Source: Amphiscolops sp. MND2022
Taxonomy: Eukaryota
NCBI GenBank assembly: GCA_964187785.1
Contig: OZ076409.1
Location: forward strand, 18,354,001 to 18,418,000
Direction: 5' to 3'
Length of the DNA: 64,000 nucleotides
Shown here in pieces: positions 13,589-63,325 of this stretch. A model generated the notes under the pieces. That model searched no databases, was not told where the DNA came from, and worked only from the letters and a program-made list of their open reading frames with translations. Positions within the stretch are counted from its first letter, which is position 1, and each line of letters begins with the position of its first letter. Both the position numbers and the translations under genes were made by a program.

Positions 13589-14027
13589 GAGTGACAGCAA
13601 TAAAGTCGAACGACTAAAGTCGAATTTGAACCGTATAACTAGCGTCGAAGTTCCATCGTCGACGGACTTATGACAAAGTCATTGCGTCTATGTCATTGCA
13701 AATGTAAAATGGTCAAACAATGTTTTGGCCGTCGGATATGCCCCATTTCCTCTTGGCCCCGCGGCCCCTTGGGGCCGCTTATGTTCCCATCTTGCTGACG
13801 GTTCCCATCTTACGACGGTGAGGGTGAGCGTGCAAACACAGTATATGACCCCATATTAGATGGGGAAAAGTACCTAAAATATTTTTTGAACCTAAAATTT
13901 TTATTTGACCAAATTCGACAAGAATTCGACCCAATTCTGTTCGACTAAATTCTACGCTATTCATTCGACGATATTCATCTACATTATTCAATAGACGAGT
14001 CAAAATTCGACTTCATTGCCGCAAACC
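13589..14027. mobile_element. MULE-like MITE family a (GTCGAA arms) with internally deleted shared core
   Basis: TIR gagtgacagcaataaagtcgaa / ggtttgcggcaatgaagtcgaa; diverged 8 bp TSD gtcaaatt/gacaaact; core remnant at 13733-13857. Confidence 0.7.
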
Positions 14028-14039
14028 GACAAACTGGAC

Positions 14040-14544
14040 GGCTGCGTGGAATCAGGTCTAATGAAATAGATCTAAGAGAGGGGGCAAAACTGAGATCTAA
14101 ATAAATTGATCTAATTAATCAGGTCTAAAAATCTCACCTAATGTGATCTAATTTGAGAAAAAAAATGAGTCAATTAGGATCTAAAACTAAAAGGTGATAT
14201 AAAGTAAAAAACGTGCCTCGGATAAGTCCCCATTTCCTCTAGTGCCACGCGGCCCCTTGGGGCTGCATATATTACATCTTGCTAAGCGAGGCTGAACAGG
14301 AGCGAAGACCTAGCGGGTACGGAGATTGCGAAGCGATCGTAGTGGGAGCTGGTCTTTGCGTTGGTGAGGGCGAGCGTGCATACACCGCATATGCCCCACA
14401 TTATATTTTCGCTTTCAGAACACATATTAGATCATAAAGTGGTTGGACTTAAGTATTTCAGTTAAAATTAGATCTGATATTTAGACCTAACAGTTAGATC
14501 TAATTCCATTAGACCCAAGCAGTTAGATCAGAGGCGTACACTCC
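14040..14544. mobile_element. MULE-like MITE family b (AGATCTAA arms) with shared core
   Basis: Perfect 9 bp TSD aaactggac (14031-14039, 14545-14553); GG..CC termini; core at 14211-14402 (+). Confidence 0.85.
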
Positions 14545-14711
14545 AAACTGGACATCTCTGGGCAAACTATTTACCAAGGCAGTTATTCAGTAGAAAAAAC
14601 TTTGTTCACATAGTTGAAGCTTCCTTTTTCCGTGTTCGATTTGGATATCACCGGATGTTCGCAGTGTATTCGGGGATTCTTGAGGAAGAAAGAAGATAGA
14701 TGGATCGAAGT

Positions 14712-16035
14712 GGCTTCAAGTCATATTGCTTAATGCCATATTGCTTAAAAATCGACCATGTACGAATTGCTTAAAATTTTTTAAGCAATATGGACATCAT
14801 TTTAAGCAATATGGACATCATTTTAAGCAATATGGACATCATTTTAAGCAATATGGACATCATTTTAAGCAATATGGACCTAGTACAGTACAATATGGAC
14901 CTTAGGTCTAATATGATCTAATAGGTCTTACGATCTAATATGTGTTCTGAGTATGATATGTGTCGTATGGAATTAGATTTAACGGTAGGTCTAACTTTCA
15001 GATCTAATTTTATCTAGAATACTTACGTCTAACGCCTTTATGATCTAATATGTGTTCTGAAAGCGAAAATATAATGTGGGGCATATGCGATGTATGCACG
15101 CTCGCCCTCACCGTCGCAAAGACCAGCTCCCACTACGATCGCTTCGCGATCTCCGTTCACGCTAGGTCTTTGCTCCTGTTCGACCTCGCTTAGCAAGATG
15201 GGAATATAAGCGGCCCCAAGGGGCCGCGGGCCACTAGAGGAAATAGGGACATATCCGAGGGGATGCAGGTCATTTCGCCTAATGCCATTTCGCCTAAAAA
15301 TTTAGTTGAGTCATTTCGCCTAAGAAAATTAGGCGAAATGACCAAACGGGAATAACGTCTAAATAATCATGTTTCGAAAAAGGCTTTCTGAAAGCGAAAA
15401 TATCAAAATGTGGGGCATATGCGGTGTATGCACACTCGCCCTCACCGTCGCAAAGACCAGCTTCCACTACGATCGCTTCGCGATCTCCGTTCCCGCTAGG
15501 TCTTTGCTCCTGTTCGACCTCTCTTAGCAAGATGGAACATAAGCGGCCCCAAGGGGCCGCGGGTCACTAGAAGGAATGGGACATACCCGAGGCACGTTTT
15601 CTATTTTATATCACTTTTTAGTTTTAGATCTTAAACGATTTATTTGTTTCCCAATTTCATGTGTTTTTCACGTTTCTGAAAAAAAATTAGGCGAAGTGAC
15701 CAAAGTAAAAGACGTTTCGCCTAAAAAAATTAGGCGAAGTGACCAAACACGTTAGGCGAAATGACTTTAGGCGAAATGGCATTAGGCGAAATGACCATTT
15801 CCCATCCGAGGCACGTGTTATAAGTGTCACTTAGATCCGACGCATTACTCGATTCATCACTCATTACTCAACGTGGAAACACATCCATATTGCTTAAAAA
15901 TTATTAAGCAATATGTCCACAAAATTAAGCAATATAGCATTATCCATATTGCTTAAAAATTATTAAGCAATATGTCCCCAAAATTAAGCAATATGGCATT
16001 AAGCAATATGGAATTAAGCAATATGTCTTGTACCC
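14712..16035. mobile_element. MULE-like MITE family c (CCATATTGCTTAA arms) with shared core; contains nested MITE d
   Basis: 9 bp TSD gatcgaagt (14703-14711, 16036-16044); TIR ggcttcaagtcatattgcttaa / gggtacaagacatattgcttaa; five copies of a 21 bp unit at 14779-14879; inverted copies at 60296 and 62007. Confidence 0.92.
15261..15803. mobile_element. MULE-like MITE family d (TTAGGCGAAATGAC arms) with shared core, inserted into the core of MITE c
   Basis: 8 bp TSD atccgagg (15253-15260, 15804-15811); about 30 bp TIR ggtcatttcgcctaatgccatttcgcctaaa; core at 15407-15597 (-). Confidence 0.92.
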
Positions 16036-16685
16036 GATCGAAGTCAAAGTCTCCACTGAGCATTTTTGACAGAAATAATATCTTGTATTTGCAAATGATG
16101 TAGAAGTGGAAGAATTCAGCTTTGTTGTAGTAGCTCTTTGTAGTTGCTATTGCTCGTGCAATTTATTCATTTTAAGCATTTCTTCTGAATTCCTTCGAGG
16201 TTTTTGGTGTTTTCGACGTTTGCATACCAACATGTACTCCCATAAGTGGAAACAGGGAGAACCATTGACTTGTATAACTTCAGTTTAGTAGGAGCAGATT
16301 GTTTGGTGGAACTCCTCTTTAACGTGAAGAACACCCGAGAACTCTCTTTGTTGCAGTTTCAATCTGATGATTCCATTTCATATCATCGGATATATAAATT
16401 CCAAGATCTTTCTCTGTTGTAACTTGGGGAATTCCATCTCCACAGAAATAGAACTCCACATCGTTAGCGTGGAAGGCAAGATGGGAGCATTTGTGGACAT
16501 TGAGAGGTAGTTGATGCGTAGCGTTCCATCTTTTCACTCGGGACAAGTCCAGATGAAAATGGAGCTTTTGTTTTTTTATTGCAATAAAAATAGCGTCATC
16601 TGCGCAAAGCAGGGGTAATGAAGACTCGGAAGACTTGCATAACGAAGGGAGATCATTATATAGACGAGGAAAAGTTAGCCACGGG

Positions 16686-17411: not shown

Positions 17412-20400
17412 GTCTCGGGGGACTAGCTTGGCCTTCCAAGCAGATAAAATATTTTTTTAGTAAAAAGTATGCTTCAGTGAATTCAGAGAATGAGGGGTAA
17501 ATAAATAGGAAGAAAGTAGCTCCTTAGGCCGACTAACTGTGGCCAAGATCCGGCAAAAAGCAGGAAAACACCGTCAAGAGAAAGCTCGAAATCTTTGGAA
17601 CATGTTATGAAACCTGTCATATTTTAATTGGTGGAGAGATAATTCAGGCAGGAATTCCCAAATAAAATCAATTCAAGATCAAATATATCATCATCAAGAA
17701 ATAACTGCGGATAAAAGTTCAATCATTTGGCATCATAATGCATTTTTGCTATTTTTGCTAGTTCCAGGAACTTTTTGACGAATTGAGAGCATTTGGGCTT
17801 CTGTGTGGAACTTTCGTTGTTAAAAATTTTTCTATTTGTGACATGCTCAAACTAGAGGAGGGAATAACGTCTAATGAATAACGTCTAAAGGTCCATCGGA
17901 AATAACGTCTAGAGGAATGACATCTAAACTGAAATATTAGGGAATAACTTCTAAACAGGGGAATAACCTTTAAAAAGAGGAATATTGTCTAAAATCAGGA
18001 AGCCTCTAAATTGGAAGAAAAGTCCAAAATATCAAAAAACCAACATAACACGTCTGAAAAATAGGAATAACGTTTAAAATTGGGAAAAACGCCTAAAATA
18101 TCCAAAAATCATTAAAATTCGTCTAAGAAACGGAAAAACGTCTAGAGTTGGGAAAATTCAAGTCAATCAAGAACTAAAGCTATAAAGTTGTTCAAAGTAT
18201 AAAACGTGTCTCGGATATGTCTCCATTTCCGCTGGTGCCCCGCAGCCCCTTGGGGCCGCCTATGTTCCCACCTTGCTAAGCGAGGTCGAAAAGGAGCAAA
18301 GACCTAGGGGTACGGAGATCGCGAAGCGATCGTAGTGGGAGCTGGTCTTTGCGACGGTGAGGGCGAGCGTGCATACACAGCATATGCCCCACATTATGAT
18401 ATTTTCGCTTTCAACAAGTCTGCTTTTGCAGATGTAGACAACTCCGCCCTTACGTCGGCCTTCGATGATTTCGAATTCTGCCATGTAGTCTAAAAATAGT
18501 CAGTTTTCAACGCGGATACTTTTCAAAATCAATTTTTTGAACATTTCCCTTTCTGGAATAACGTCTAAAAAACAGGGATAACGTCTAAAAAACAAGAAGA
18601 AAGTTTTAAAAAAACGGGACAAACGTCTAATTATTTAGTCGTTATTCCCGAAAAACGATTTATATTTAGACGTTATTCCCGTTTTGAACTCTGACGTTAT
18701 TCCTTAGACATTCTTCCCGGCCGCCTGCTCAAACACTCGCTCTCCTTGATTCAAATGAACAAACAAAACATAGCAAAGTGATTAGATTTTCAACTAGATT
18801 AAAGTATGTTTTTTAAATGACGGGTGAGACATCAGACAGGGGAAGTGTTTTGAGTTTGTTGACCGGACGAATGTATTCGCCAGTTGATGTCCTCACCTTT
18901 ACAACACGAACAAAATTGTCTGGCCCGCTATACGCATATGACACTCGGGCCAAGGGCCATTGTGAGGGAGCCACGTTGTCGTCCATGAGATATACAACAT
19001 CACCAACCTTGAGATTGCAGCTCTCTTTCCTCCGTTTACATCCTTCCTGGAGAGCCGATACGTACTCTTTTTTCCAACGGTTCCAGAAGTGACATTTAGG
19101 ATACGAGTCCACCGAGCAGTTGCTGAGCAATGTTTCAAATGAGATATCTGGGATGACTGCTCAGTTGGGTAACATTCCAATTTTGATCAGCCTATCAGAT
19201 GCCCAGAAGTCAAAATGACCTCATTTTTCGGGTCGTCTGAGACTAATCTTATGGGTCTTGAACTTAGCACGTTTTCCACTTGGCAGAAAAGGGTGGAGAG
19301 TTTTCCAAAACTGAGAACATTTTTGCCAATTATTCGTCTTAGATGGTTTTTTGCACTCTTAGTCCCAGCTTCCCACAAACCCGCAAAGTGGGGCGCTCGC
19401 GGAAGAATAAAGTCCCATTCAATCAGTAGTCCGGCTGGCACTGATTCTATAGAGTTTTCGATCGTGTCATTAGGTATTTTCTTGTGTTTAATAAGGAGCT
19501 CTGCAAGAGAACCTTGGAAATTCGAGACGTTATCTGAGTTAATAGAAGCAGGACAACGCCTCTTTGAAGGTTTAAAAAAACACGCCTGTGTTGGGAGATC
19601 AGAGACGATCTCCAGATGAACTGCCTTGCTGGCAAAGCACACAAATAGAGACGAGGTATGTTTTTGTGACGTCTTTACGATCACCGCTACAACAACTTGG
19701 GCCTCCAAAGTCCAAAATAACATGTTGGAATGCCTTGGAGGGAACTGTTTTTCTTTATTTAGGCCAATCGCCCATCAACTGTTCAGAACTTGAATTGAAT
19801 CTACAACAAATGATACACATCAAGATAATTTTCCGCAGTTGTTTGCCTCATGCTGGTATTCCAAATAAAGTACGGATTTCAGCTATCGTTTGGATAGTTC
19901 CACTATGCAGAGTTTGAAGATGGGCGTCAAGAATTATCAATCTTGGTAGTTCATTTTTTGCGGAACTATCTGAGGGTACATGGCTTCATCAGGCATTTCA
20001 GCATTGGCACATCGACTGCCTACATGCACTACCTCTTTTTGCAACAATGGATACAATTTAAGGATTCTGTTATTTGTTCGCACCGAATTACACCGTTTCT
20101 GAGACTCATTTTTCTTTTCTCAAGAATCCTTTTCTCTGCTCTTGATTTTTTTGTTTCTTCTTTTATTCCTTCTTGTTTGAATAGAACAAACGTTTCATGA
20201 GTTAACAGCCAATCAGGACCAACCCACCAGATTGACAAATTCTCAAGCTTGGATGGATCCACCAATCTGGACCTTGGCTCTGCTGGATTTTCATGTGTTT
20301 GCACATGATTCCTGATTAAATCTTCGTTCTCTTGAATTTTAGCACCTCGATTGGTTACAAAAGTTGCCCAAACGCTTGGCTCAGAAGCTAGCCGGTTTAT

Positions 20401-25765: not shown

Positions 25766-25812
25766 CTTCGTTCAAGCCAGTGACTTCAATTTTGATTAGA
25801 CAAAGCAGAATC

Positions 25813-26259
25813 GTGGTATACTGATTGACAAAACAACTCTACAATCAATTTGGATCAATATTTGGCTGGTATAACGAAACCTCCCGATTTGGAACTGATT
25901 TGGAGTATAAATCGCGCCTCTGATATGTCCCCATTTCCTCTAGTGTCCCGCGGCCCATTGGGACCGCATATGTTTCCATCTTGGTAAGTGACGTCAAACA
26001 GGAGCAACTACCTAGCCGGAGAGGAGATCCCGAAGCGATTGTAGTGGGAGCTGGTCTTTGCGAGGCTGCGGGCGAGCGTGCAAACACCGTATTTGACCCC
26101 ACTTTACTTTCGATAATATATAAAAGCACAATAGCAGTCGACCTGTGTTTGTCGATCCGCGGTTTCTCGATCAATGTCGATCACACTTGTCGATCAGAGT
26201 TTTGTCCATCGTTGTCGATGAAAAAGTTTTCGATCTTTTCATTCGATCAGTTTACCCAC
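25813..26259. mobile_element. MITE family f (GATCGA arms) with a diverged shared core
   Basis: Ends gtggtatactgattga / reverse complement gtgggtaaactgatcga; core at about 25913-26103 (+); no TSD seen. Confidence 0.6.
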
Positions 26260-32254: not shown

Positions 32255-32349
32255 AAATTTCTGGACACTAAAGCAAAGATTCAGAGCTGACAGGATTTGA
32301 ACCTATTCTTCCAAGTCGCGGCCTGACGTGCTGATCATTACACTACAAC
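32255..32349 (-). mobile_element. tRNA-derived SINE-like head (related copies about 32535-32582 and 56937-57020)
   Basis: Minus strand tagtgtaatg (A-box-like) and ggttcaaatcc (B-box); downstream flank ctttgctttagtgtc is shared with the 56.9 kb copy. Confidence 0.6.
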
Positions 32350-33037
32350 TTCGATATATGAGCAACCTGTCCTGACTTATAAACCAACTTGGTGGTTGCT
32401 ACATTATTCCCTTCTCAAAAGAGTTCCTATCTCGCTGTCACCAAGCTCAAGGACAACATTCGGTACGAGCAACTCATGTCAGCTCTACCACTATTGCAAC
32501 TCGATAAACTATCTAGACACCAATCAAATTTTTAGAGCTAGCAAGATATGAACCTATTCTTCCATATAGCGGTCTGACGTCATGTTCAATTTACTCCTTC
32601 TATGTAGGTGTACAGTGAAATTCGAAAGTTTGTTGGATATCACAGCCTGCTTTGTTTGCCGCACAGATCACTTTTCAGTCAGAAGCTTCCTCAATGTAGT
32701 TTACTTGTGCACACGAAAAAGCGTCTTGAGGGTTACAAGACACGTGGCTTGACAACACTTGGCTGATGTTTTATTTCGAGTCACTTTTTTTTAAATTTTA
32801 TGTTTCCACTGTCAAATACCATGGATCTTCGTCACCAATCTATGTGCGTTATCATGCTGCAGAGGGGGGGGGGGAGACACACACCCGTGGTCTGCAAAGA
32901 AAGGAAAAACTTTCCCAGTAGACCAGCAGCAACAGATCAACAACGAAGAATGTTCTTATACCAGCCACTATCCCTGTCGGCCGGTAGAAACAAGGTTTTG
33001 AAGAAAGCTGCGATGATAAACAGGTTTTTCAAAATGA

Positions 33038-33535
33038 CTATAAGTAGTAAATTTCTTCAAACGCGTCTCTGTCACTCTCAGTTCCAAGAACAAAGGCCGC
33101 AAAGCCGATCTGGAGAGCTGAGATCCGTTGCTTCAAAAAGCTGCAAGCTCGGTGATCGTCGTGCGAACTACAGAGCGTTTTATAGAGACGCGTACTGGAA
33201 ATTTCAATACTCTCGCCTAAAGAACCCTGTACTTCCATGGCCACCAGTTGAAAAGTGTATTCATTGTCTATCATTTCGCAATACCTTTCATTTTTACATT
33301 GTTCAGGCCTGATGACGGCGAATCCTGGGTTGCATAAAGAGCCTTGGTTCAGGCCACTGGCTGCATGAGCATCCACCACCGTTATATCCCACACAGCTGT
33401 TTGTTAAACAATCTGAAACAGTCAGGTACTGACCACGCGGTTCGAGCACTGAAGGCAAATGGAGAGATCCCAATGTCTGCTAAATGAGAGAAATGGTAGT
33501 CGCATGACGTGAGAAGCTACCAGCACTCTTGGTAG
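33038..33535 (-). pseudogene. C-terminal restriction-like endonuclease fragment of a CRE-like non-LTR retrotransposon
   Basis: SAG.FSRH...EP.G...WDITVVD...VAMEVQGSLG...FLKQRIS..QIG..A.VLGT pattern. Confidence 0.75.
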
Positions 33536-34266
33536 AGAATGAAAAGTTCTAAACTCTCAAAAGTTTTCTCGAGGATGAATCATCGGTTCATTAATTCGAA
33601 AGCGTTTTCAGAATCAGTTTCATGATTACGTTTTTTTTGGGCTGGATTCTCTCCGTCAGACATCGGAGAACATGTGAGGCCAATTCAGCGCCTTTTTTGC
33701 TACACCTTTTTGTCGACTTCCGTATCTTGTTTGACTTGATTCGAAGACATAGTATGCGGTACAATTTGCGGATAACCGGCGTAAAGTAACGCCTACAGCA
33801 ACCGGCGATCTCTTCCATCGGTCTTTTTAGCGCAAATGATTTCGCACCAAAGAAGATCGAGAGGTACTTTTCCCTCGCGAGTCACCTTCATAAGAATGGA
33901 TTTGGCTCGGAGAAAATTAAATCCAGGTTGGCCGTTCGTTTTGGCAGGCATATCTTTCAAAATGCGAGTACAATATTATCCAAATCCACACTAGAACCGT
34001 TAGGAAAATGCACAAGAGTTTTTTAAACGGAGACCTCAGGGGTTGAAAATTAGTTGACAAAAACAACCAGCACAAGTGGTTTGCCCAGGTGCAGCGACAC
34101 ACCATTAAAATAGCGTCAGAGATGTTGACCAGTTGTCAACAATTCAAACCATTGCCATCTCTGAAGCTATTCAACAAGCCTTCAATAGGCTTGAGTTGGT
34201 GTTTAACAACCAATTCGAAATCTTTCAATTTTATCTCCAAGTAAAGACCAGCTCCCTTTATGATTG

Positions 34267-34765
34267 ATTCGCGATCTCCGTTCCAATGCACGTTTTAGTT
34301 TTTAAGTCTTTACCATATCAGGGATAACCTCCAAAAAAACAGAGAAAACGTCTAAAATTTAGAACCTAGTTGCGATTCAGGAACTGGCAAGCTCCAGATC
34401 TTGGATATGAAAATTGTCATTTAGACCTTAGTTCTTTAGTTACAGAAGTGCGTTTCGATCTAATTCCTTGGATCGCAAGTTGTGCCCACTGCATTTAGCG
34501 CACTGAGGGTTTGTGAAGATAGCTAACTACGTTATGATGAAGATTTTGACAAATTCTGCCACGTGTTTCTAATGCAGTAGTTTTTAGCCAAGTGGTATGA
34601 AGCCGGAAAACCATACCCAAGACGTGTGGTTTGAAAAATTATGCTAAGTGAGCAAATGCATTAGGCCAAATGAGGTCACAAGTCACAATAATTCGGCTTA
34701 AATTCTGTGTCGAACCATTTGGCCTAAAGTTCTGAGGCAAAATGACTACAATTTTAAACCAAGTG
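34267..34765. repeat. Decayed remnants of the MITE core and of the arms seen at 58869-59195 and 61189-61410
   Basis: ttcgcgatctccgttcc core fragment; gtgcgtttcgatc...gttgtgcccac and gacaaattctgccacgtgttt match reverse complements of the 58.9 kb and 61.3 kb sequences. Confidence 0.65.
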
Positions 34766-35639
34766 TATTCTAATTCAAGGAATGGCTCAAAACACTTTTT
34801 CGAGACCAAAACAGGATTGACATTTTAACGAAGTTTTAGGAAACAACGAAAAAAGTAAACGTGTTGCTAAAGGTTGGATTCGCTAAGCAGCAATCTTGAG
34901 GCATGGCTATACTGCATGTCACTCTGCTTCATATCAGTCCTCCTTTTAGGGCTCTAGGTGTATGTGAACATAGCAGACTATGTTGTCACAATTTTTCCGA
35001 CAAAATCTGACACGCAGTTTCAGCTTAGTGAATTCGTTTCGATTTCAAATTTTAACCGCCCAGACTGCAGCATAAACGACAATTTTGCTGTTTGAGAGCC
35101 AATTTTCGTTTTCTGCTGTTTGGTAGTTCGGTGGTTTGGGAATTCAAAATATTAGACACTGTCGTAGTTCTCAAAAACGCAAACAGCACAAAAAGCACTT
35201 CACCAAATTGAAAACTCACATTGCAGTTGATTTTCCTAATTGGGCAGCAGAATATGGCGTGAGAAAATATCAACTGTCTCTTTCAAAAGCAAACGTGACT
35301 GCAAAAGCTTTAACATGTAAAGCTAATTAGAGTGGAATCTTTTTGACAACGGTGTATTCCCAAATAACATAAGCGCAATTTTTATAAAATCTAAATTAAT
35401 TTCGAATAACATAAAAATCAAATGAACTCGACTAAAAATGAAATTGAAATTGTTTGCGCGAAAATTTCAGTGATTAAAAGTGTTCACAGTTCAAAAGATT
35501 CACTGAGTCATGGAAATTACAGAAAAAATTTAGTCAATTCGATTGTTTAACAGGTTTTTGGTTTTCAGTTGATACTCTATGGTTTTTATTGACAAAAAAA
35601 GAAAGTGTTTCAAACCTTATTATCAACTGAAATTTTCAT

Positions 35640-45749: not shown

Positions 45750-46740
45750 CCGGGCGACAACTTTCTCGTTTCACGCGTCAAGTTGCACAGTTCACGCGTT
45801 CGTAGTCTAGTGGTAAGATGTTTGCTTTTCAACCCAGAGGTTTCGTTTTCGAACCCGTGCATATGCGCTAATTTTTTACAAGTTATCTGAAGCAGGTTCT
45901 CACTTTTTTCGGTACCATGAGACTCCCCCCTCCTTTTTTCGGCTTTGGGAGACTTTTTCGAAAATTTTTAAATGCCGCCAATTGTCTTTCCTTCTATTTT
46001 TTTGATATTTTGCAAGAGAACGAATGTTAGAAAATCCCAAAGGGCCGCTTTTTTCAAATTTTTCGACACTATGAGACTCGAAATTTCTCTTACTTTTCGA
46101 AAAATTTTCGAAAGACTCCAAACGGTCTCCCTTCAGTTTTTTGAACTTTTGCAACAAAATGGATGTTAAAATATCTCCAAGGGCCCCCTTTTACAGTTTT
46201 CGGCATTGTGAGATTTTTCAAAAAGAATTTTTGTCTCAAAATTAGGTTTTCTCAAGCCCAGAACGCTCTATTCGATTTTCGTTTTTTTAAGGACCGGTGT
46301 TTGTTACATTCGTTTTCATCGAAGCCCCGCTCAATTTTTACAAGACACAAAACGTTTTGCGAGCGTAAAGCACTCCTCAACGTTTTTGTCACTATGCGAA
46401 TTACCGGAGACCTTCATCAAAAAAAATTCGGAAAATTTCGAAAAAAAATTCTTTATTTTCTGTTTTTTTTTTAAAGGTTTTCCGTTGAGAAAGATGTTTT
46501 TTTTTGCTGTTTCCAGTTAGGGAAGAATGGTTTTCGAGACTTATGCGTATCCCTTCGGGTATTTTTTCGGGGCTGTAAAATTGATGAAATTTTAACATTA
46601 TTGTCATTTTACTCTTTGTTCTCCGTATGATACTGCTTATTTGGTTTTCTTTTGAAAAGTTCACAACTTTTTTCGCAAGTAATTGCGAAGCACGGCTTCG
46701 CCTCTGTGTAATAGAAGTATTAACAAATGTCTCTATCGTC
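45750..46740 (+). mobile_element. Non-autonomous repeat with a tRNA-Glu-like segment (45796-45868), related to the HINE family
   Basis: tagtctagtggtaagat...ttttcaaccc...ttcgaaccc; shared motifs aagggcccc and cggcattgtgagatttttc; hairpin gcgaagc-acg-gcttcgc at 46685-46701. Confidence 0.55.
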
Positions 46741-47150: not shown

Positions 47151-48054
47151 ACAGGCGAATCCGAGCCGGCAGTTAATTCAAGCCAAAGATCTCGCAATTC
47201 AGATGAGAAATGCTCCAAATTTAGTTGGATCTGTCCGTGATGAATATCAGCTGACTGAATTGTACTAGTGAAATGCTTCTTCAACGTTTTTTACCTGGTT
47301 GAATTGCTTCATCTGATTCTCGCCTATTTTCCGCCTTGTCGTTCCGGAAAGTAGAGCAAATAACGGCTAAAAATCCGCGTTTTGACACAGAAAATGAGCA
47401 GGAATTGGCTTCAGACGTTAATTCTGTTTTGCATTTAGACGTTACTCCTTAGATGTCATTCCTGCTCATGTCTGCGAACGAGTCAAAATTTCAAAAGTCA
47501 ATGTTTCGAGGTCCAAATGTTGAACGTTTTTCGGTGTTTTGACTCGCTTCCAAGACGGAGTAGTTTAATTATAATTCTAAACGGAAGTAGTAGTAAACGT
47601 CTTTATTTCATAAAAAGAGGAAATATGGTAACTGGCTGGAATAAAATGGAAACTGAATAATGCTGGACAGATTGAGCGAAAATACTTTATCAAAAATGAA
47701 CAACTTTGTAGCCATTGGAAGGATAGCATCCTTTCCGGAGCAAAAACTCAATAGATTTTTTCAAAGCTGAGAGGTCATAACCAACTTGTGTCCAATTCTA
47801 CTTGGTTGTGGGGAAACTATTAGATTTGAATTTTCTTTAGGCCTCTGAAAACAAGAACTTAGCAGCGATTTTTGCAGGCTTCGATTTTTCTATCATTGCA
47901 AACTCCACTTCCACTATTTTGTGCCAAGAGAAAACCATGTCAGTTTCAGCTAGTTGATTGCACAGCGGTAGGATTTTTATGCGACAGAGAGCCTCGTTGT
48001 CTTCTTCACATGAAACTATCCAGTTCTGGAATCGTTCCATTTAGTGCATATCAG

Positions 48055-49720
48055 TTACTGAAGGATGCTGTATTGAAGAACATTACAGTAGTTTAGGATG
48101 ATTAAGGATTGACAGATTCTTTTCCTATTCTATCGAGCTGTTTAAGGACACATTTTGACACAGTAAACTGATATTTGTTGCATTTTGCTACCTCAGATTC
48201 AACAGGAGCAGTTTAGGAGAGCTTAAAACTCCAGGATCGACCAATTCAAGAACAGGCACCGTTGTTGTGCCAGTTAAATTTAAACGGTTGAATTTATCTA
48301 AATGAAACTCAACCACTTTTACCTGCCCATAGAGAAAGGCAATCGTTTGATTCGTTTCTAAATATTGTTATTCATGTAAATGTTCAAAAATTAGTCAAAA
48401 TGTCGAAACGTCAAAACGACTTTCTTCAAGACGTAAATTATAACTGAAGATTCTGAAAGTAAGAAACGGCTATTTCCACATTTCCTCTATACATATTAAA
48501 TATAGTATCCCCAACTTGCGGGAGGGTGTTTTTATAAATAGACAAAAAATTGAGAGTTGGATAAAAAAATGTTAGGCTTTAATGATGAGAGTTACAGGGT
48601 TCCGTTTAATTTTGTTGAATGTGAGTTGTAGTCAATGATAGTCTTGCACTCTTCAGGGTCTAGGAGATACATAAAGTCAATATCATCAGGTCTGATGTCA
48701 TGTCGTTGTATTGACCACATGCCAGAAATAAATGTTCGGCAGTCTTCTCACTATTGCCACAACAACACATCGGAAACTTCGTCTGCCTTTTTTCCAGGCG
48801 TAATCGGCTAAGGCGAAAGAGTTGCCAAACAGCATTTCACATATTTTAACAGCTTCATACCTTTGGAGGTTGAAAAGGGGGACGGAGTGTTATAAGCAGA
48901 TGGCGTTTTGGTGCAACATTTCAGAAACGACCTCTTCTCTTAATGTTTCTACCTAATGCTCCACAGAAAGTTAAATAAAAAGCTGACATCTTAGTGTTTG
49001 TATCTCGTACAATTTTGATTTCTCAGGGACTTTCCCAATCGCGTTACGTGACTCTCGAGGAGGTTAGCAACATTGTACCGAAAAGAGGTTACTGCCAACC
49101 AGAACCTGACAAGAGTTGATATTCGGCAGGAATCCCTGGCTAAAGACTGTCCTTATGAAATAATTCTGTAACGCTGTGACGTATTTGAAGTTTTTCTCAA
49201 GACATATCAGTGCTGCATAGAAAAGTGAGAGTAAGAGGGTGCTTTTGTACAGCAGAACTAGCGTTGAAACTGCAACGTTCCATTTCCTACTGCATAACGA
49301 CTTAATAATATTCCAATTTCGCGTTACTTTCTCTATTGTTGTAGTAGAAGTAGAATGATCTCGGTAGTGGAGTTTGGTATCAATAACTTTGTTGTTTTTT
49401 GAACCTGACATTTATGACCATAGAGGGACGGGAGCTGGATGTTATTTTCGTCGGAGTTGAACAGGATTATTTCTTCAGTTTTTCCTCCGTTCACTAACAT
49501 TCTGCAATCAGCACACCACTTTCGATGTCGGGACAAGTTTTACGAAGGATGTCAGATAGATATGACGAAACATTGCCAGTGACAATGACAGAACTACCGT
49601 CTGCAAACTCGAGATTCTGTGCTTGATTACAACGAAGGTTGTTTATAAAAATGATGAAGAGCAATTGCGACAAAACATTTTGTAGGGAACGCCAATGTTA
49701 ATCTGGAACTTCGAAGATTG
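48055..49720 (-). mobile_element. 5'-truncated LINE copy (end of RT, CCHC-like knuckle, 3' UTR)
   Basis: FADG...VNGGKTEEIILF, PMCCCGNSEKTAEHLFLAC; about 1.15 kb is repeated at 49770-50925. Confidence 0.8.
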
Positions 49721-49769
49721 TCATCCTTTCAATTCGTATCACAATTGGTATTACATACATATCAGTTAT

Positions 49770-52700
49770 TGAAGGATGCTATATTCAAGGGCATTACAGT
49801 AGTATAGTGTAATTAAGGATTAACAGATTTTTTCAATCTATCGAGCTGTCTAAGGACACATTTCGACAGAACTATTTTTTTGTTGCATTTTGCTACCTCA
49901 GATTCAACAGGAGCAAATTAGAAGAGCTTGAATCTCCAGGATCCATCAATTCTTGAACAAGCACTGTTGTTCTGCTAGTTGAAATTTAAACGGTTGATTT
50001 TATCTAAATGATACAGCCATTTTTTTCCCATAGAGTAAGGCAATTCCTTGACTCTTCTCTAAAAGTTGTCATTCAAGTGAATGTTCAGAAATTAGTCAAA
50101 AAGTTGAAACTTCAATATGACTTTCTTCAAGACGTAAATTATAACTGAAGACTTCTGAAATTATGAAACGGCTATTTCCACGTTTCCTCTATACATTCTA
50201 AATCTAGTAGCCCCAACTTTCTGGAGGGGTTTTATAAAGAAAGACAAAACATTTAGAGTTGGATTAAGATAAGTTTGGCTTTAATGATGAGAGTTACACG
50301 ATTCTGTTTATTTTCGTTGAATTTGCGTTGTTGTCAAGGATAGTATTGCAGTCTTCAGGTTCTAGGAGATACAATAGGTCTATATCTTCAGGTCTGATGT
50401 TGCTGTATTGACCACATGCCAGAAGTAAATGTTCGGCAGTATTCTCACTATTGCCACAACAACTCATCGGAGACTTCGTCTGCCTTTTTTCCGAGCGTAA
50501 TTGGCTAAGGCGAAAGAGTTGCCAATCAGCATTTCACATATATTAATAGCTTCATATATTTTGAGAATGAAAAGGGGGACGGAGTGTTATAAGCAGGTGG
50601 AGTTTTGGTGCTACATTTCAGAAACGACCTGTTATCTTTATGTTTCCACCTAATGTTTCACAGAAGGTTGAAGAAGATGCTGACATCTTGCTGTTTGTAT
50701 CTCGTTCTATTTTGATTTCTCAGGAACTTTCCGAATCGCGTAACGTGACTCTCGAGGAGGTTAGTAACATTGTCCCGAAAAGAGGTTAATGCCCAGCAGA
50801 ACCTGACAAGGGTTGATATTCGGCAAAAATCCGTGTCTAAAGACGGTGCTTATGAGATAATTCTGTAATGCTGTGACGTATTTGAGGTTTTTCGCAAGCC
50901 ATATTGGTGCTGCATAGAAACGTGAGGGAACTTCGGAGATTGGTATCCATTCAATTCGATGGAAGTCACTCTGGGTTTCAGAAACGAACTAATACTTTCT
51001 GTCAGAAATATTGTGTTCCAGCAGTTCAAAGAGGACCGTCCACCCACACGCTATCAAAAGACTTTTCGAGGTCAATGTTTCGCAGAGTTGTTGGAACACG
51101 TGAACAGATGTAGTCTGTAAAGCGATCGAGTGGTGTTTCTTTTCGATTTGAAACCCTCCTGTTCGTCTCCAAGCAGTCCATTGACATCGAGATGAGTTTT
51201 GATTCTAGTTACAAGTAGTCGTTCCTGTTACAAGTTTTGCCGATATGACTGGAGATTGAGAGTGGTCGACATGAAGAGCATTCATCGTATCACATTTTGT
51301 TTGGTTGGCGTATGAAGACAACTGGTGACTCCGTCCATGACAACACATGATTTTTCTAACAAGCTTTGAAATTAGTCAGCAAAAAAGCGAGTGTTTTTTT
51401 GCCCAAAGTCTTGATCATTATCAAATGGTTTAACGTTGCTTGATTTCAAAATATAGTTTTTCAAAACATCGAAAATAATTTCATCTTGAAAAACTTCATT
51501 TTAATGTTCTGGATCATTGTGTGGTTTGTTTATTTTGGCTTCTACTATATGTGTTGAGTCGTTGAATCTCTCTGTTTTCAGATGTTCTCCTCCAAAGAAC
51601 GTTTTTTCAAATTATTTGCTAAATTCCTCTGGAGCATATAAGAGCCTCCATTCCTTACTGCGTCTTAGTCCAACTTCTTCATGTTTACTGTTGAGAAATG
51701 TTTTGTAAGAAGTCCAGAACTCTGATCCTCTATTATGCTCAAGCGATGGCATATAGTTTTCCTTTCATTCAGATACACTTTTGTTGTGTAAAATCTTGAA
51801 ACGTTACTTCGCTGCCTTCAGCTTCCGTCCGTTCTCCATATTTGATTTGTACTTTGAACATTTTTTGTAAAAATTGAGGCCCATTGCTTGCGTCAGTCAA
51901 GCATGTATTCCAAACGGTTTGCTATGATTTGAAACGCATTTGGGAGTTATGTGAACAAAGGAAGCTTCAAGAAGCAGATTTCTGAACTCGTTTCAAAAGA
52001 AGGGGTCGTCCTCAACATACATGAGATTCTCTATTCGGTCATCAATGAAAGAAGTCGATTTGCCCAATCAGTTTTCCCAATCCCTAATTTCTTGATATTC
52101 TGATTTTCTCGGTGTTGCTACCAGGTTCCAATCTCATAATACCTGGAACATGGGCCCTCAGTGGAGCACCGGTGAACAGCTCGGCCAATTCATCCGTAGA
52201 AAGTCTGTGTACAGTGGCCCATAACAGATGCAAAGATCAATGACGCTGGATCCATTTGCTGTCGAAAACATGGGCTCACCATCGTTGAAATCGCTGAAGT
52301 GGTCAGTTCTATGAAGTAGTTCTTCGCCTTACAAGTTACACGATTAGTCCCCCAAGAAACACGCCTTGCATTGAGGTCACCAACGAAAAGAGCTCCATTC
52401 AGGCCACTTTTGACAAAATAGGTTTTGCAACTCTGTATCACTGTCATGGCTTTTCTCAAGCTCTCGATGTCATCGGGTCTGAAATATGAAGTAGTAAGAA
52501 CTAACTTAATTTCGCCCAGCCTAACAGTCAAAACAAAATTATCAACAGGAGCGTCCTCGAATTGATCGAGTCTTGGGTAAGGGATTTGATTTTTCAACAA
52601 AACAGCGACGCTCCAGAATTTACATTAATACAGCTGCTTGTTGTGTAACTCAAAAAAACCTGAGCTTATTTGTGTCATGGATTCTTCCAGAAATTCGTTA

Positions 52701-53640: not shown

Positions 53641-53658
53641 TTCTGATTTCAGACTCTG

Positions 53659-54675
53659 TTTTTAGTCGGCGCTTTTCGAAGAAAAACGCAGACTATAGTA
53701 GTGACTTCTTTTTTTAAGACCAACGAACTGACAGATTTTATAAATTTTATAAGTTGGCACTAAACCGGCACTAACACTAAACTGTGTCACACTACTTAAC
53801 TGCCACTTGGCCATTGCGGCTTTTTCGAGGTCTGATAAGCAGAAGGACATGGGTTCGAGTCCCGTCATGACCAAAAATTTTTTATGCAAATTTTTTTCGG
53901 CTTTGTGAGACTTTTTTCGCAAATATCTCCAAAGGGTCCACCCTTCATTTTTTTGTCTATTTGCAAAAGAATGGATGTTAAAAAACTTCCAAAGGGCCCC
54001 ATTTTACATGTTTCGGCACTATGCGACTTACGGGAGACCAAAAAAATTTTAAAAATTTCAAAAAACGGAATTTTTTTTTCAATTTTTCTTCAAACGGGTA
54101 CTGTAGAAGAGAATACTTGACACTTTGAAGTCCTTTTGTTATTTTTGAGCCTTAGATATGGCGCCGACTTGGGCCGTTTCCGGCTTGTTTTTTTTAAGAC
54201 CAACGAACTGACAGATTTTATAAATTTTATAAGTTGGCACCAAACCGGCACTAACACTAAACTGTGTCACGCTACTTCACTGCCACTTGGCCACTACGGC
54301 TTTTTCGAGGTCTGACAAGCAGAATGACATGGGTTCGAGTCCCGCCATGACCAAAATTTTTTTGTGCAAATTTGTTTCGGCTTTGTGAGACTTATTTCGC
54401 AAATATCTCCAAAGGGTCCTACCTTCATTTTTTTGTCTATTTTGCAAAAAAATAGATGTTAAAAAACTCCCAAAGGGCCCCATTTTACATGTTTCGGCAT
54501 TATGCGACTTACGGGTGACCAAAAAAACATTTGAAAATTTTCGAAAAAATTCGGAATTTTTTTTCAATTTTTCCTCAAACGGGTACTGTAGAAGAGAAAA
54601 CTTGACACTTTAAAGTCCTTTTGTTATTTTTGAGCCTTAGATATGGCGCCGACTTGGGCCGTTCCCGGCTTGTTT
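53659..54675 (+). mobile_element. Helentron-like non-autonomous element (HINE) with a 480 bp tandem duplication, inserted in a T tract
   Basis: Subterminal IR agtcggcgc (53664-53672) / gcgccgact (54646-54654); 3' hairpin gccg-ttcc-cggc then TT; units start at 53711 and 54191; each unit has gggttcgagtccc. Confidence 0.75.
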
Positions 54676-54969
54676 GTTGTTGATTTGTGGTATTCAAAGA
54701 TTTCCAGGCCTTAGAGGCACAACCCTTAAGACGCTTGTCTTTGCATTTGGAGCAACACCACTGAACAGAGGCATTTTTTGAAAGTATTGGTGGGTCCTTT
54801 ACATGAAGCTCCTACATGATCTATGTCACTACGATTCACATCCGTTACAACATATTGAATTCTTTTCCGTTTCCTCAACTCCCTTACAATTAGGGCAACA
54901 ACCATCCGAAACCTACTGAATTGTGTTTTTCGGGCCCATTGTGTCAGATCGCAGCATATTCTCAAGGGA

Positions 54970-55302
54970 ATACAGATAACTAATCTACTGAGCCAGTTTC
55001 AGTTGATGAAGCCTCTTTCTTATTCTCTGATTCGGTTTCTTCCCTATCTTTTATCTGGTTTGTAACAGCGTCGATGATGATAATCTGGGAATTGAATAAC
55101 CACCTTTTGATGCCCCGATGCCCTCCCGGCGACAGTAAACTATTGCTATAATTCTGTCCCGGAACAGCAAGAGATTTTCTGTTAGCTGGTCGATCGAACG
55201 TGGCTGATAGTTATTGCATCTATCGGATAGAATATTCTAGTTTTGTAAGCGATATAGTTTAGCGTTCAATACCGTGAACTAGCGCCAATCATTAATACCA
55301 TG
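54970..55302 (-). pseudogene. Decayed paralogue of the SGNH-like ORF at 63326
   Basis: MVLMIGASS...YKTR and CNNYQPRSIDQL...RIIAIVYCRREG align with MVYIVGASS...YKFR and SNNHKPWTPQQL...RITAVIYCRRFG. Confidence 0.75.
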
Positions 55303-57014: not shown

Positions 57015-57090
57015 TTACATTATTATTATCATTGTTGTTATTATTAATTTTTTTATTATTAATACTTTTATTATCATCATTATTATTATG
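57015..57090. repeat. Imperfect (ATT)n microsatellite
   Basis: Runs of att/tta. Confidence 0.7.
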
Positions 57091-58370: not shown

Positions 58371-58860
58371 GGCTTCGGGCAAGCAGTTCGATTTACTAAG
58401 TTCGAATTTGAACTAGTGCAATAAGTTCGCATGGAATAGTTTCGAGACACCAAGTTCGAATTTTCATATCTGGCATATCCGGTGTAAACTGGACATCCTT
58501 CACACAAGATCCTGAGAGCTCCACCGCCTAGGATCTGAAGGAATCTAAAAACTGAAATGTGGGGCATATCCGGTGTATGCACCCTCGCCCTCACCGTCGC
58601 AAAGACAAGCACCCACTGCGATCTCCGTTCCCGCTAGGTATTTGCTCCTGTTCGACCTCGCTTAGCAAGATGGGAACATAGGCGGCCCAAGGGGCCGCAG
58701 GGCACTAGATGAAATGGGGAAATATCAGAGGCACGTTTTATACTTAGTTCAAAATTCGAACACAGTGATTCGAACTTTTTCCGGTCTTTGGAAAATTCGA
58801 ACTTAGTCCATTCGAAATTAAAATTCGAACTTATGCGTTCGAACTTACTAGTGTGCCCCC
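58371..58860. mobile_element. MULE-like MITE family g (TTCGAA arms) with shared core
   Basis: TSD ccctatat (58363-58370, 58861-58868); core at 58556-58736 (-) lacks the GCGAAGC hairpin. Confidence 0.8.
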
Positions 58861-58868
58861 CCCTATAT

Positions 58869-59195
58869 GTGGGCACAAACTACGATCTAAGGAATAAGAA
58901 CGAAACGCACTTCTGTAATTGAAATCTAAGAACTAAGATCTAAATGTCATTTAACTAAGATCTAGAGAATGTCAGCTCCTGAATTGTAACTAGAGTCTAA
59001 GTTTTCTGATGTTATTCCGGTTTTTTCAGACGTTATTCCCGTTTTGGGATGAAATGAACTCCCACACTCTTCATTAGACGTTATTCTTGTTCTATTTAGA
59101 CCTTAGTTACTGTGCATGCTTTTTGAATCTTAGTTCTTTAGATCTTAATTACGAAATTTCTTTAGATCCTATTCCTTAGACCTTAGTTACGCCCC
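58869..59195. mobile_element. MULE-like MITE (CTAAGATCTAA arms), no core, directly adjacent to MITE g
   Basis: Flanked by ccctatat (58861-58868, 59196-59203); ends gtgggcacaaactacgatctaaggaataag / reverse complement ggggcgtaactaaggtctaaggaatagg. Confidence 0.75.
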
Positions 59196-59898
59196 CCCTA
59201 TATAGCTCAAAATGTAATTTTGTTGATTTTAAAAGTCAAAATATTTCTGAAGCGAATACGGCCACTGGGAATACCTAAAAAACGTTTCAACAGACTTGTC
59301 AAGTCTGGAACCAAAGTTTTTTGTTTAGCTCAAATGTCAGAAAAGTCAAAAATTTAGCGAAACCCTCAAATTGGGCCATTTTGACCAATTTTGACAAGGG
59401 AGCGAAGCGAAGCTGAGCGACGTGCCATATGGCCAATCCTCAATGTTGCTACTTGGCGAGGGAACAGGACGTTTCGGCAAAGACGTTTCGGCAAAAAAAT
59501 GGTTCGAGACGTTTCGGCAAATTTTTCATGCCGGAACGTCCCGTATTATCTTGTTTTTGTTTTTGGTTTTCTACAAACTGGTTAGGTCCACCTTTGTTAC
59601 AATACCAGGTTGTATTCTACAATACCAGTTTGTAGAATTCTCGAATTGAAGAAAAACGATAAGACCATTAATGTAGGAATGATGCAAAGCATGAAACGTG
59701 CCTCGGATATGTCCCCATTTCCTCTAGTGCCTCTCGGCCCCTTGGGGCCGCTTATTTTCCCATCTTGCTAAGCGAGGTCAAACAGGAGCAAAGACCTAGC
59801 GGGAACGGAGATCGCGAAGCGATCGTAGTGGGAGCTGGTCTTTGCGACGGTGAGGGCGAGCGTACATACACCGGATATGCCCCACATATCATACAAAA

Positions 59899-60247
59899 GG
59901 GTGGGCGGAAGTAGGTCGAAGGAACGGGATCGAAAATCAGAGTTAGTCCTCAGGTCGACATACCAAATTTTTTGAATAGGATCGAAACAACTCGGATCGA
60001 AATTTTTTAACGTAGTCAGATATGTTCACATACCCCTAGTGCCCTGAATGCAGGAGCGAAGCGAAGCGGAGCGACGTGCCATATGACCATGCCTCAATGT
60101 AGCTACTTGGCGAAAGGAGCGAAGCGACCGAGCCATACAACAAATACGATAAAAATCGACCGCATTCCATTCAATCCCTGCAATTCGATCAAAAGGTTCG
60201 ACCTCTGTCCTTTCGACCAGAAAAATTCAACCTATTTACAGCCACCC
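59899..60247. mobile_element. MULE-like MITE (GGTCGA/GATCGA arms) with a GCGAAGC-rich 90 bp mini-core; duplicate at 61609-61958
   Basis: 9 bp TSD catacaaaa; TIR gggtgggcggaagtaggtcgaa / gggtggctgtaaataggttgaa. Confidence 0.88.
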
Positions 60248-60295
60248 CATACAAAACGTTTCGGCAATTGTTTTTAGCCTGAGACGTTTCGGCAT

Positions 60296-61047
60296 GGGTA
60301 CAAGACATATTGCCTACTTCCATATTGCTTAATGCCATATTGCTTAATTTAGTGGACATATTGCTTAATAGTTTTTAAGAAATTTGGATAATGCCATATT
60401 GCTTAATTTTGTGGACATATTGCCTAATAATTTTTAAGCAATATGGATGTGTTTTCACATTGAGTAATGAGTGATGAATCGAGTAATGCGTCGGATCTAA
60501 GTGACACTTATAACACGTGCCTCGGGTATGTCCCCATTTCCTCTAGTGGCCCGCGGCCCCTTGGGGCCGCTTATATTCCCATCTTGCTAAGCGAGGTCGA
60601 ACAGGAGCAAAGACCTAGCGGGAACGGAGATCGCGAAGCGATCGTAGTGGGAGCTGGTCTTTGCGACGGTGAGGGCGAGCGTGCATACATCGCATATGCC
60701 CCACATTATATTTTCGCTTTCAGAACACATATTAGATCATAAAGGCGTTAGACCTAAGTATTTTAGATAAAATTAGATCTGAAAGTTAGACCTACCGTTG
60801 AATCTAATTCCATACGACACATATCATACTCAGAACACATCTTAGATCATAAGTCCTATTAGATCATATTAGACCTAAGGTCCATATTGTACTGTACTAG
60901 GTCCATATTGCTTAAAATGATGTCCATATTGCTTAAAATGATGTCCATATTGCTTAAAATGATGTCCATATTGCTTTAAAAATTTTAAACAATTCGTACA
61001 TGGTCGATTTTTAAGCAATATGGCATTAAGCAATATGACTTGAAGCC
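60296..61047. mobile_element. MITE family c, 752 bp; duplicate at 62007-62758
   Basis: 9 bp TSD tttcggcat; same TIRs as 14712-16035 in inverted orientation; core at 60515-60707. Confidence 0.92.
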
Positions 61048-61188
61048 TTTCGGCATGTTTTTTTGCCGAAACGTCCGCCGCCATGTTTTTGCCGAAACGT
61101 CCGCCGCCATGTTTTTGCCGAATCATCTTTTGCCGAAACGTCCGGAATCTCTTGGCGAAGGGAGCAAAGCGACCGAGTCATACAACAA

Positions 61189-61597
61189 GGTAAATGGTCA
61201 CTTGGCTTAATGCCATTTGGCTTGAAGTCATTTGGTTAATACAATTGGTCACTTGGCTGAATTTTTTAAAGCTAAGTGTCTCGGGTATTGGTCACTTGTC
61301 TTAAAGTCATTTGACTTAAAACCACTTAGTTGAAAACACGTGGCAGATTTTGTCGAATTTATCTTTATTACGTAGTCAGCGTATTATTATAACAAGTCAT
61401 ATCAAGTACCCCTCGGATATGTCCGCATTTCCTCTAGTGCCCTGCGGCCCCTTGGGGCCGCTTATATCCCCATCTTGCTAAGCGAGGTCGAACAGGAGCA
61501 AAGACCTAGCGGGAACAGAGATCGCGAAGCGATCGTAGTGGGAGCTGGTCTTTGCGACGGTGAGGGCGAGCGTACATACACCGGTTATGCCCCACAT
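61189..61597. mobile_element. Left arm plus core of MITE family i (CACTTGGCTTAA arms); repeated at about 62874-63115
   Basis: Terminus ggtaaatggtcacttggcttaatgccatttgg has the same layout as the family d TIR; core follows at 61411; right arm not in the window. Confidence 0.7.
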
Positions 61598-63325
61598 ATC
61601 ATACAAAAGGGTGGGCGGAAGTAGGTCGAAGGAACGGGATCGAAAATCAGGGTTAGTCCTCAGGTCGACATACCAAATTTTTTGAATGGGATCGAAACAA
61701 CGCGGATCGAAATTTTTATAACGTAGTCAGATATGTTCACAAGCCCCTAGTGCCCTGAATGCAGGAGCGAAGCGAAGCGGAGCGACATGCCATATGGCCA
61801 TGCCTCAATGTTGCTACTTGGCGAAAGGAGCGAAGCGACCGAGCCATACAACAAATACGATAAAATTCGACCGCATTCCATTCGATCCCTGCAATTCGAT
61901 CAAAAGGTTCGACCTCTGTCCTTTCGACCAGAAAAATTCGACCTATTTACAGCCACCCCATACAAAACGTTTCGGCAATTGTTTTTAGCCTGAGACGTTT
62001 CGGCATGGGTACAAGACATATTGCTTAATTCCATATTGCTTAATGCCATATTGCTTAAATTTGTGGACATATTGCTTAATAATTTTTAGGCAATATGGAT
62101 AATGCCATATTGCTTAATTTTGTGGACATATTGCTTAATAATTTTTAAGCAATATGGATGTGTTTTCACATTGAGTAATGAGTGATGAATCGAGCAATGC
62201 GTCGGATCTAAGTGACACTTATAACACGTGCCTCGGGTATGTCCCCATTTCCTCTAGTGGCCCGCGGCCCCTTGGGGCCGCTTATATTCCCATCTTGCTA
62301 AGCGAGGTCGAACAGGAGCAAAGACCTAGCGGGAACGGAGATCGCGAAGCGACCGTAGTGGGAGCTGGTCTTTGCGACGGTGAGGGCGAGCGTGCATACA
62401 TCGCATATGCCCCACATTATATTTTCGCTTTCAGAACACATATTAGATCATAAAGGCGTTAGACCTAAGTATTTTAGATAAAATTAGATCTGAAAGTTAG
62501 ACCTACCGTTGAATCTAATTCCATACGACACATATCATACTCAGAACACATCTTAGATCATAAGACCTATTAGATCATATTAGACCTAAGGTCCATATTG
62601 TACTGTACTAGGTCCATATTGCTTAAAATGATGTCCATATTGCTTAAAATGATGTCCATATTGCTTAAAATGATGTCCATATTGCTTTAAAAATTTTAAA
62701 CAATTCGTACATGGTCGATTTTTAAGCAATATGGCATTAAGCAATATGACTTGAAGCCTTTCGGCATGTTTTTTTGCCGAAACGTCCGCCGCCATGTTTT
62801 TGCCGAAACGTCTTTTGCCGAAACGTCCGGAATCCCTTGGCGAAGGGAGCAAACCGACCGAGTCATACAACAAGGTAAATGGTCACTTGGCTTAATGCCA
62901 TTTGGCTTGAAGTCATTTGGCTTAATACAATTGGTCACTTGGCTGAATTTTTTTAAGCTAAGTGTCTCGGGTATTGGTCACTTGGCGCAAAGTCATTTGA
63001 CTTAAAACCACTTAGTTGAAAACACGTGGCAGATTTTGTCGAATTTATCTTTATTACGTAGTCAGCGTATTATTATAACATGTCATATCAAGTACCCCTC
63101 GGATATGTCCCCATTGGTTGTGATAAACTTGTTGTGATAAACTTGTTGAATAGTTTCAGACTTTTGATTGAATTGATTGATCTTCATCACATCACTGGAA
63201 GCGTTGTGCAGGACCGATCAAGGCTTTCGGGGGATCTGTGGCTCTTCTGTTGGCTTTTCTCACCAATTGGGTGGACCTATCTAGACAATTCTGTTAGTTT
63301 GTTCCAATTTCCTTATGTGATTCCT

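Follow-up and report, generated by a model that had tools for sequence, protein, structure and literature searches.

A shared non-genic core recurs in MITEs of many Mutator-like families of Amphiscolops and appears to be captured serially from neighbouring elements

MITE families (MITE, miniature inverted-repeat transposable element) with a common interior have reportedly been met before in corals, where the interior of the so-called CMITEs is said to be more conserved between families than the ends and to have been suggested to play a role in transposition; these elements reportedly have piggyBac-type ends and an unknown origin. Among Mutator-like elements (MULEs), the closest described systems are Muta1 and other MULEs of Aedes aegypti, which encode a FLYWCH and MULE transposase of about 500 amino acids and generate an 8- or 9-bp duplication (PMC5225508), and Tm1 of root-knot nematodes, a Mutator/Foldback family of the Phantom type whose ends are asymmetric and which has tandem motifs (PMC3169594). 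Here we describe a GC-rich module of about 190 bp, core 1, that recurs inside MITEs of different families in a 64,000-nucleotide stretch of the Amphiscolops sp. MND2022 genome (the window; assembly GCA_964187785.1, contig OZ076409.1, forward-strand positions 18,354,001–18,418,000).

The hosts of core 1 are ordinary Muta1/Phantom-type MULE MITEs. They share with Muta1 a short and imperfect motif at the termini, tandem repeats in subterminal position and non-autonomous derivatives that contain foreign filler. In Aedes the fillers are heterogeneous and partly made of host-gene pieces, and a genic preference is described (PMC5225508), whereas here one filler recurs across families and insertions cluster on it. 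A subgroup of Tm1 also carries a conserved non-coding hairpin passenger; however, Tm1 is one family, and the available portion of that report mentions neither a hand-off between transposases nor targeting (PMC3169594), unlike what we observe here. Our analysis gives good support to the conclusion that a guild of MULE families serially captured the shared module from neighbouring MITEs. We further propose, with a probability of about 0.5 and from sequence comparison, that the core acts as a landing pad that is itself portable, which would draw many MULE transposases and hence be recaptured repeatedly.

The sampled genome comprises 1.07 Gb in 1,929 contigs, and by our own reading the genes and elements of the window are of animal type. 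An exact 31-mer from core 1 had 2,405 matches in the genome and its reversed control had none. Because this 31-mer was present in 31 of 90 cores from loci not selected for the core, we estimate that the genome holds roughly 7,000 copies of core 1. Random stretches totalling 200 kb contained two cores; the window therefore represents a core cluster. The 31-mer places (92 read of the 100 listed), together with the window and some of the best-match loci, supplied 131 near-full copies of core 1. Separately, family-specific ends yielded 131 de-duplicated elements flanked by 8- or 9-bp duplications; these have 15 end types, and every end type has core-bearing members. Target duplications were called with family-specific ends; a loose automatic finder, which passed 39 of 296 mismatched pairs, was dropped. 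The number of end types exceeds the roughly nine unrelated host families proposed in an earlier note made from the window sequence alone, and the Mutator-like character that it had assigned to the hosts was confirmed by the 8–9-bp duplications, the long arms of tandem motifs and the short asymmetric termini. The same note had considered that most copies might prove to lie outside MITEs. Recurrent MITE flanks or verified MITE ends were identified for 130 of the 131 near-full copies, the remaining one is the copy at 25913 of the window, whose flank type was found again at locus L302, and not one of the 131 is free.

For five of the 15 end types (F1, F2, F6, F7 and F8; families F1–F8 are named after window coordinates), reading 70 of the 150 listed MULE-transposase loci turned up autonomous partners whose ends are those of the MITEs. 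The ends of partners and MITEs are 80–99% alike. All five partners encode the MULE domain. A FLYWCH domain at the protein start was seen for F6 and F8 and, as a weak match, for F7; the frames of F1 and F2 are partial. None of the autonomous partners in these five families contains the core. The five transposases are 23–54% identical, consistent with the earlier proposal that different transposases serve different families, and they form two deep clades with 23–30% identity between them, according to a quick version of the tree in which the deepest fork is weak. The majority cores of 14 junction types are only 1–12 of 171 bases apart, those of F1 and F2 differing at two. Core distances do not track transposase distances, in agreement with movement of the core between families; the match between core and family that the earlier note had named as the mark of descent from one ancestral element was looked for and not seen.

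The structure of the MITEs indicates how the core was acquired. Each partnered MITE consists of its partner's two ends around foreign filler that includes the core, and this filler often extends past the core into the arm of another family. For example, F2 holds 115 bases of F1 right-hand sequence, with 68 bases that are 91.5% like the F1 partner, and F3 shares 80 and 44 core-flanking bases with an F4-type element. Five further arm-remnant pairs were identified, and it is because of such remnants that the direction of a hand-off, for instance from F1 to F2, can be read. The family-specific junctions carry 0–116 bases of the previous host. Serial capture of this kind is what gap repair, or a deletion that follows insertion beside another element, would be expected to produce, and Pack-type elements are established to capture neighbouring DNA by these processes (PMC6446971; PMC6379663).

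Insertion on and beside cores was pronounced in the families we anchored on their ends. F7 ends had 1,440 exact matches, of which the first 30 in chromosome order were examined; the control was a clade-IV MULE end with 78 matches, again at 30 loci. Core 1 was present outside the F7 element within 1.5 kb at 23 of 30 loci compared with none of the 30 control loci, and the element was inserted directly in a guild element in 9/30 F7 and 0/30 control cases; either core was nearby at two of the 30 controls. With five duplicate F7 loci removed, core 1 or the second core described below lay outside the element at 19 of 25 loci (median distance 127 bp), 18 of these 19 within 350 bp. For F6, whose ends had 486 matches, about 20 of 26 independent elements had another core nearby. 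Autonomous MULEs picked by protein had a core within about 2 kb at 3/6, 9/9, 5/18 and 1/37 loci in four clades, and five coreless autonomous elements lie inside cores (L213, L202, L177, L192 and the Merlin element L137). Local hopping is insufficient as an explanation because the clusters mix different families, and survival of harmless insertions is likewise insufficient because such neighbours are few or absent for clade IV, for Helitrons and at most Merlin loci. Insertion on or beside cores, missed by the earlier note, would explain repeated capture by itself.

The clusters are located mostly within dead retroelements or anonymous DNA. Cellular Pfam domains were detected at two of 41 cluster loci and one of 40 random windows, in searches that covered 77 of the 120 frames listed for the former and 71 of the 102 for the latter; on this ground a housekeeping-promoter niche was rejected. 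Retroelement domains were somewhat commoner at clusters (14/41 versus 6/40). A niche defined by base composition or CpG was also rejected, since the cluster flanks resemble the controls.

A second core, which the earlier note did not report, is the passenger of F7 (core 2; window 61726–61855). It occurs in at least seven other flank types, including clade III MULE families and a Merlin-ended MITE (L193:329–1029; L251), and the autonomous Merlin element mentioned above is inserted in a core 2. The two cores resemble each other at their termini to a degree reached by 0–5 of 1,000 shuffles, and the short words shared by their middles are at chance level. Their common terminal motifs are likely to represent putative binding sites. 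Among short foldbacks with a duplication, 10 of 13 hold core 1 or core 2, a figure for loci that were not core-selected but include MULE-anchored ones rather than a genome-wide one. Merlin was rejected as the mover of core-1 MITEs: core-1 hosts match none of 30 Merlin loci, and their ends differ from the short perfect inverted ends that Merlin elements have in this genome.

Core 1 had been described as structured, which our analysis did not bear out. Folding was at shuffle level (z = −0.57 for plus-strand RNA, −0.45 for DNA and −1.38 for minus-strand RNA), no match was obtained in an Rfam search, and among 49 copies, young ones that give the test low power, three of 43 predicted pairs showed two-sided change. 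A conserved RNA fold or RNA family was rejected on these grounds; the short local hairpins of the core are real. The core showed no features of a short interspersed nuclear element (SINE), that is, a tRNA, 5S or 7SL head with RNA polymerase III boxes, a tail or a duplication of its own. A Helitron or Helentron nature was rejected, as no free copies end at the hairpin and four-base terminus, and no core was found at the ends of the RepHel-type elements that were read (of 152 matches, 10 across 20 kb each and 12 across 3.5 kb). On the contig of the window, Helitron-type elements whose open frames reach about 2,375 amino acids are densely grouped at 73.4–76.5 Mb.

Core 1 also shows internal sites of rearrangement. 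Head-to-head and tail-to-tail fusions were observed at an 18-base palindrome (core positions 39–56; L064, L071, L091 and L106); they join the cores of different families and are likely deletions between inverted neighbours. Positions 5–14 received repeated independent insertions (window 15261; L100, L213 and L038), and the core of several families starts at these repeatedly targeted positions.

Several features are indirect signs of core function. Near-full copies number 171, whereas by eye we counted about 14 distinct deletions inside the core, each confined to one locus or its local duplicate and none present at two independent loci. Fifteen families keep a near-whole core 1 (positions ~13–183), and among sampled non-autonomous elements a core is carried by all of F7 and nearly all of F6. 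The earlier suggestion that the core promotes amplification in cis goes further than these signs, and a test for selection at the level of single bases was negative: shared versus single-copy changes numbered 7/98 in the core, 8/121 in the spacer and 32/296 in the arms, with no difference at low power (P = 1.0 and 0.43).

A portable landing pad could act as follows. The core would bind a host protein or keep chromatin open, candidates being a promoter-like open site, an insulator or a replication origin, and a first copy would seed an insertion hot spot. On excision of a later arrival, the adjacent core would be copied between the ends of that element through gap repair or a deletion, and a new MITE family would thereby be founded. 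The same property may ease mobilisation of core-bearing donors, which would account for the dominance of intact cores. A broader possibility, which we hold tentatively and somewhat short of even odds on the sequence evidence, is that the two related cores are selfish replicators at a new level: having no ends or enzyme of their own, they would lure the transposases of many families, be packed into new MITEs each time, pass between families and superfamilies, and outlive each host. Besides the negative base-level test, several observations weigh against a landing pad. Six of the 25 F7 loci have no nearby core, and the direct insertions in guild DNA (9/30) approximate the guild's share of the neighbourhood, so that any targeting would be regional and not sequence-exact. 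The 3′ end of an older non-long terminal repeat (non-LTR) retrotransposon is likewise often found as a close neighbour and as a target, at 36 of 160 loci compared with one of 80, and 10 of 22 independent loci anchored on it had a core; the core is thus not the sole attractor, and a pre-existing niche could suffice. Alignment of this 3′ end with the cores scored at or below shuffles and no shared words exceeded chance, and the idea that the core derives from this retrotransposon was rejected accordingly.

The chief alternative is a shared niche with hitchhiking, in which the transposases favour the same few thousand pre-existing spots, MITEs accumulate at them, and an inert core, abundant early, was copied by gap repair because it lay adjacent. 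We consider this explanation a serious one, if on balance unlikely. The unrelated retrotransposon end as an equally good neighbour, the lack of detectable base-level selection and the excess of retroelement domains at clusters agree with it, and by our own arithmetic some 7,000 equal niches would yield the observed neighbour rate. However, although most of each neighbourhood is unique DNA, arms and fragments of retrotransposons, a near-whole core 1 was retained in 15 families and a whole core 2 in further ones; amplified deleted cores were not seen, the clusters are not located at gene starts, and the two diverged cores have kept the same motifs at their ends. It is improbable that the core helps only on the donor side, by raising excision or by pairing core-bearing donors with core-bearing targets in the manner of transgene homing, and attracts nothing as a target. 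The coreless autonomous elements that landed in or beside cores argue against such a role, although it would fit both the near-universal carriage of a core by the sampled non-autonomous F6 and F7 elements and the fact that deleted cores remain single. An origin of the core as a mobile element in its own right (rolling-circle, SINE-like or recombinase-moved) that entered MITEs is largely refuted and we regard it as very improbable, despite its small DNA-type hairpins, an imperfect direct repeat at its two ends, a minus-strand hairpin followed by a Helitron-like terminus, and ends conserved between the two cores. The near-full set has no free copy, and the junctions are family-specific with pieces of earlier hosts attached. 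The Helitron-like terminus is never an end (59 genome variants, 29 of 30 inspected running on as core), the 10 Helitron-type elements read over 20 kb have no core at their ends, there is no tail and no Rfam or tRNA match, and a matching empty MITE is absent among the 30 F7 loci. Finally, a single ancestral element whose arms diverged around a vertically inherited core is scarcely credible. A short A-rich stretch upstream of the core is common to many families and fades gradually, as such descent might leave it; vertical descent is nevertheless out because the transposases are 23–54% identical while the cores differ at 1–12 of 171 bases. The partners are coreless and fall in two deep clades, the F1 and F2 cores are nearly the same, the MITE ends match present-day partners, and core 2 is also found in a Merlin-ended MITE. 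Gene conversion of the core after an ancient split would leave the arm remnants unexplained.

All core-1 copies that had been listed for the window were recovered, with a mutual likeness of 80–95%. The description of near-complete copies as lying inside foldbacks holds for eight of 11 main copies with both ends and an 8–9-bp duplication; those at 13733 and 25913 have visible repeated-motif arms, but a clean target duplication was not found. The first cluster begins with an old plus-strand foldback (13589–14023, approximate ends) holding an internally deleted core 1 (~13729–13860). It is followed by an F1 MITE (14039–14544, plus strand; core 1 at 14211–14401; partner L202/L220) and an F2 MITE (14712–16035, minus strand; partner L213), both with ends and duplication. 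The core 1 of this F2 element (15073–15260), which also has the F1-arm remnant, is split near its start by an F3 MITE (15261–15803, minus strand) that has an 8-bp duplication, core 1 at 15407–15599 and the F4-type arm remnant. An F4 MITE (17854–18726, plus strand) contains core 1 at 18204–18394 and has a 9-bp duplication with one mismatch. Further along are the old core-1 copy at 25913–26105 (plus strand), 80–85% alike and with decayed arms, whose upstream flank type is the one seen again at L302; a core-1 fragment (34243–34284, minus strand; core positions 107–148); and an old core-2 copy (34879–34994, minus strand), 77% alike, whose flanks are of a type belonging to a different MULE family.

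The second cluster starts with an F5 MITE (58371–58860, minus strand; ends and duplication; L001 176–665) with core 1 at 58556–58745, abutted by a coreless MITE of a core-carrying family (58869–59197, plus strand). Elsewhere, an F5 MITE has inserted into one of the tRNA-like genes that form a tandem array and was amplified along with the array (L029, L030). A partial core-2 copy (59399–59459, plus strand) is interrupted by insertion of an F6 MITE and resumes at 61151–61188. This F6 element (59460–61150, plus strand; ends and duplication; partners L209, L210 and L212) has core 1 at 59696–59887 and contains two nested elements: an F7 MITE (59898–60247, plus strand; partner L203) with core 2, 10 bases after core 1, and an F2 MITE (60296–61047, plus strand; ends and duplication) with core 1 at 60515–60706, within the F6 arm. 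The left arm of an F8 element (61189–61410, plus strand; partner L211) follows and is repeated at 62874–63096. The remaining part (61411–63115, plus strand) is the second unit of a 1.7-kb tandem duplication (59701–61429 versus 61411–63115, 96%). It comprises a hybrid core 1 (61411–61597), F7 (61609–61958) with core 2 at 61726–61855, F2 (62007–62758; ends and duplication) with core 1 at 62226–62417, the F8 arm and a 19-base core start (63097–63115). The cores at 61411 and 62226, both listed by the earlier note, stem from this duplication and are not independent insertions; that at 61411 is preceded by a single F8 arm and followed by sequence of F6. The breakpoint falls within a core, and unequal crossover between two cores would be the simplest reading. 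The two F7 elements at 59898–60247 and 61609–61958 hold core 2 and not core 1; a core-1 version of F7 is present outside the window (L055, L237).

Around these clusters we read ECI2-like (one long frame), ubiquitin-conjugating enzyme-like and RPB4-like host genes at 5243–6553, 9829–10221 and 12331–12921 (−), and the first MITE cluster starts about 0.7 kb upstream of the RPB4-like gene, which corresponds to an RNA polymerase II subunit. Coreless tandem or dispersed repeats occupy 48047–50926, 53709–54678 and 45934–46470 (a 1.2-kb pair 86% alike and a 0.49-kb pair 93% alike). A degenerate tRNA-like sequence at 32282–32352 (minus strand; Rfam 36.9 bits, no call by ARAGORN) recurs at 32486 and 56906. 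The 3′ part of the retrotransposon discussed above is present at 32809–33402 (minus strand), at L351, L298, L107 and about 35 other loci, with at least 2,573 candidates; the element encodes a restriction-like endonuclease and is CRE-like by our own reading. Its last 55 bases have a C/D small nucleolar RNA box pattern; their Rfam match, to sR5, is weak, with E 0.03 and a score under the gathering cutoff. A second retrotransposon 3′ end, about 59% alike and with C/D-like boxes, lies beside guild elements at L007, L008, L019, L025, L301 and L118.

The earlier note knew of no description of such a core. This is doubtful, as the coral MITEs with a conserved common interior are probably a precedent, and the shared-interior pattern is therefore probably not categorically new. 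In comparison with the coral elements as reported, coreless partners are identified here, serial capture is visible, the crossing of a core from MULE to Merlin ends is observed and insertions cluster on the core; membership of the hosts in the CMITE group is unlikely because they have MULE-type duplications. Regional preferences are known from tethered or homing transposition, as in Ty1 and Ty3 at tRNA genes, Ty5, the homing and origin preference of P elements and the MITE-into-MITE preference in grasses, and an internal excision enhancer is known in a Stowaway MITE. The present case would resemble these in that insertions are directed to a region extending some hundreds of bases around a bound site and in an internal sequence that favours MITEs. 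In those systems, however, the sites are host features or belong to one family, whereas the site proposed here would be element-borne and common to many transposases. Pack-MULE and Pack-TYPE elements resemble the guild in having autonomous ends around captured DNA (PMC6446971; PMC6379663), but here the captured DNA is always the same non-genic module and is taken from other MITEs. In a literature search that left subscription journals largely uncovered, neither chains of capture linking identified transposases nor a superfamily-crossing core nor insertion clustering on a shared core was found described.

How MITE families are born and selectively amplified is an open question, and their interiors are mostly treated as inert filler. 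With five transposases, natural MITEs and one shared interior in hand, effects on the donor and on the target side are directly testable. If the core is indeed a landing pad, it would be a parasite of parasites that shapes the pile-up of DNA transposons across a genome of 1 Gb, and targeted integration could profit from a site of 190 bp at which MULE transposases dock.

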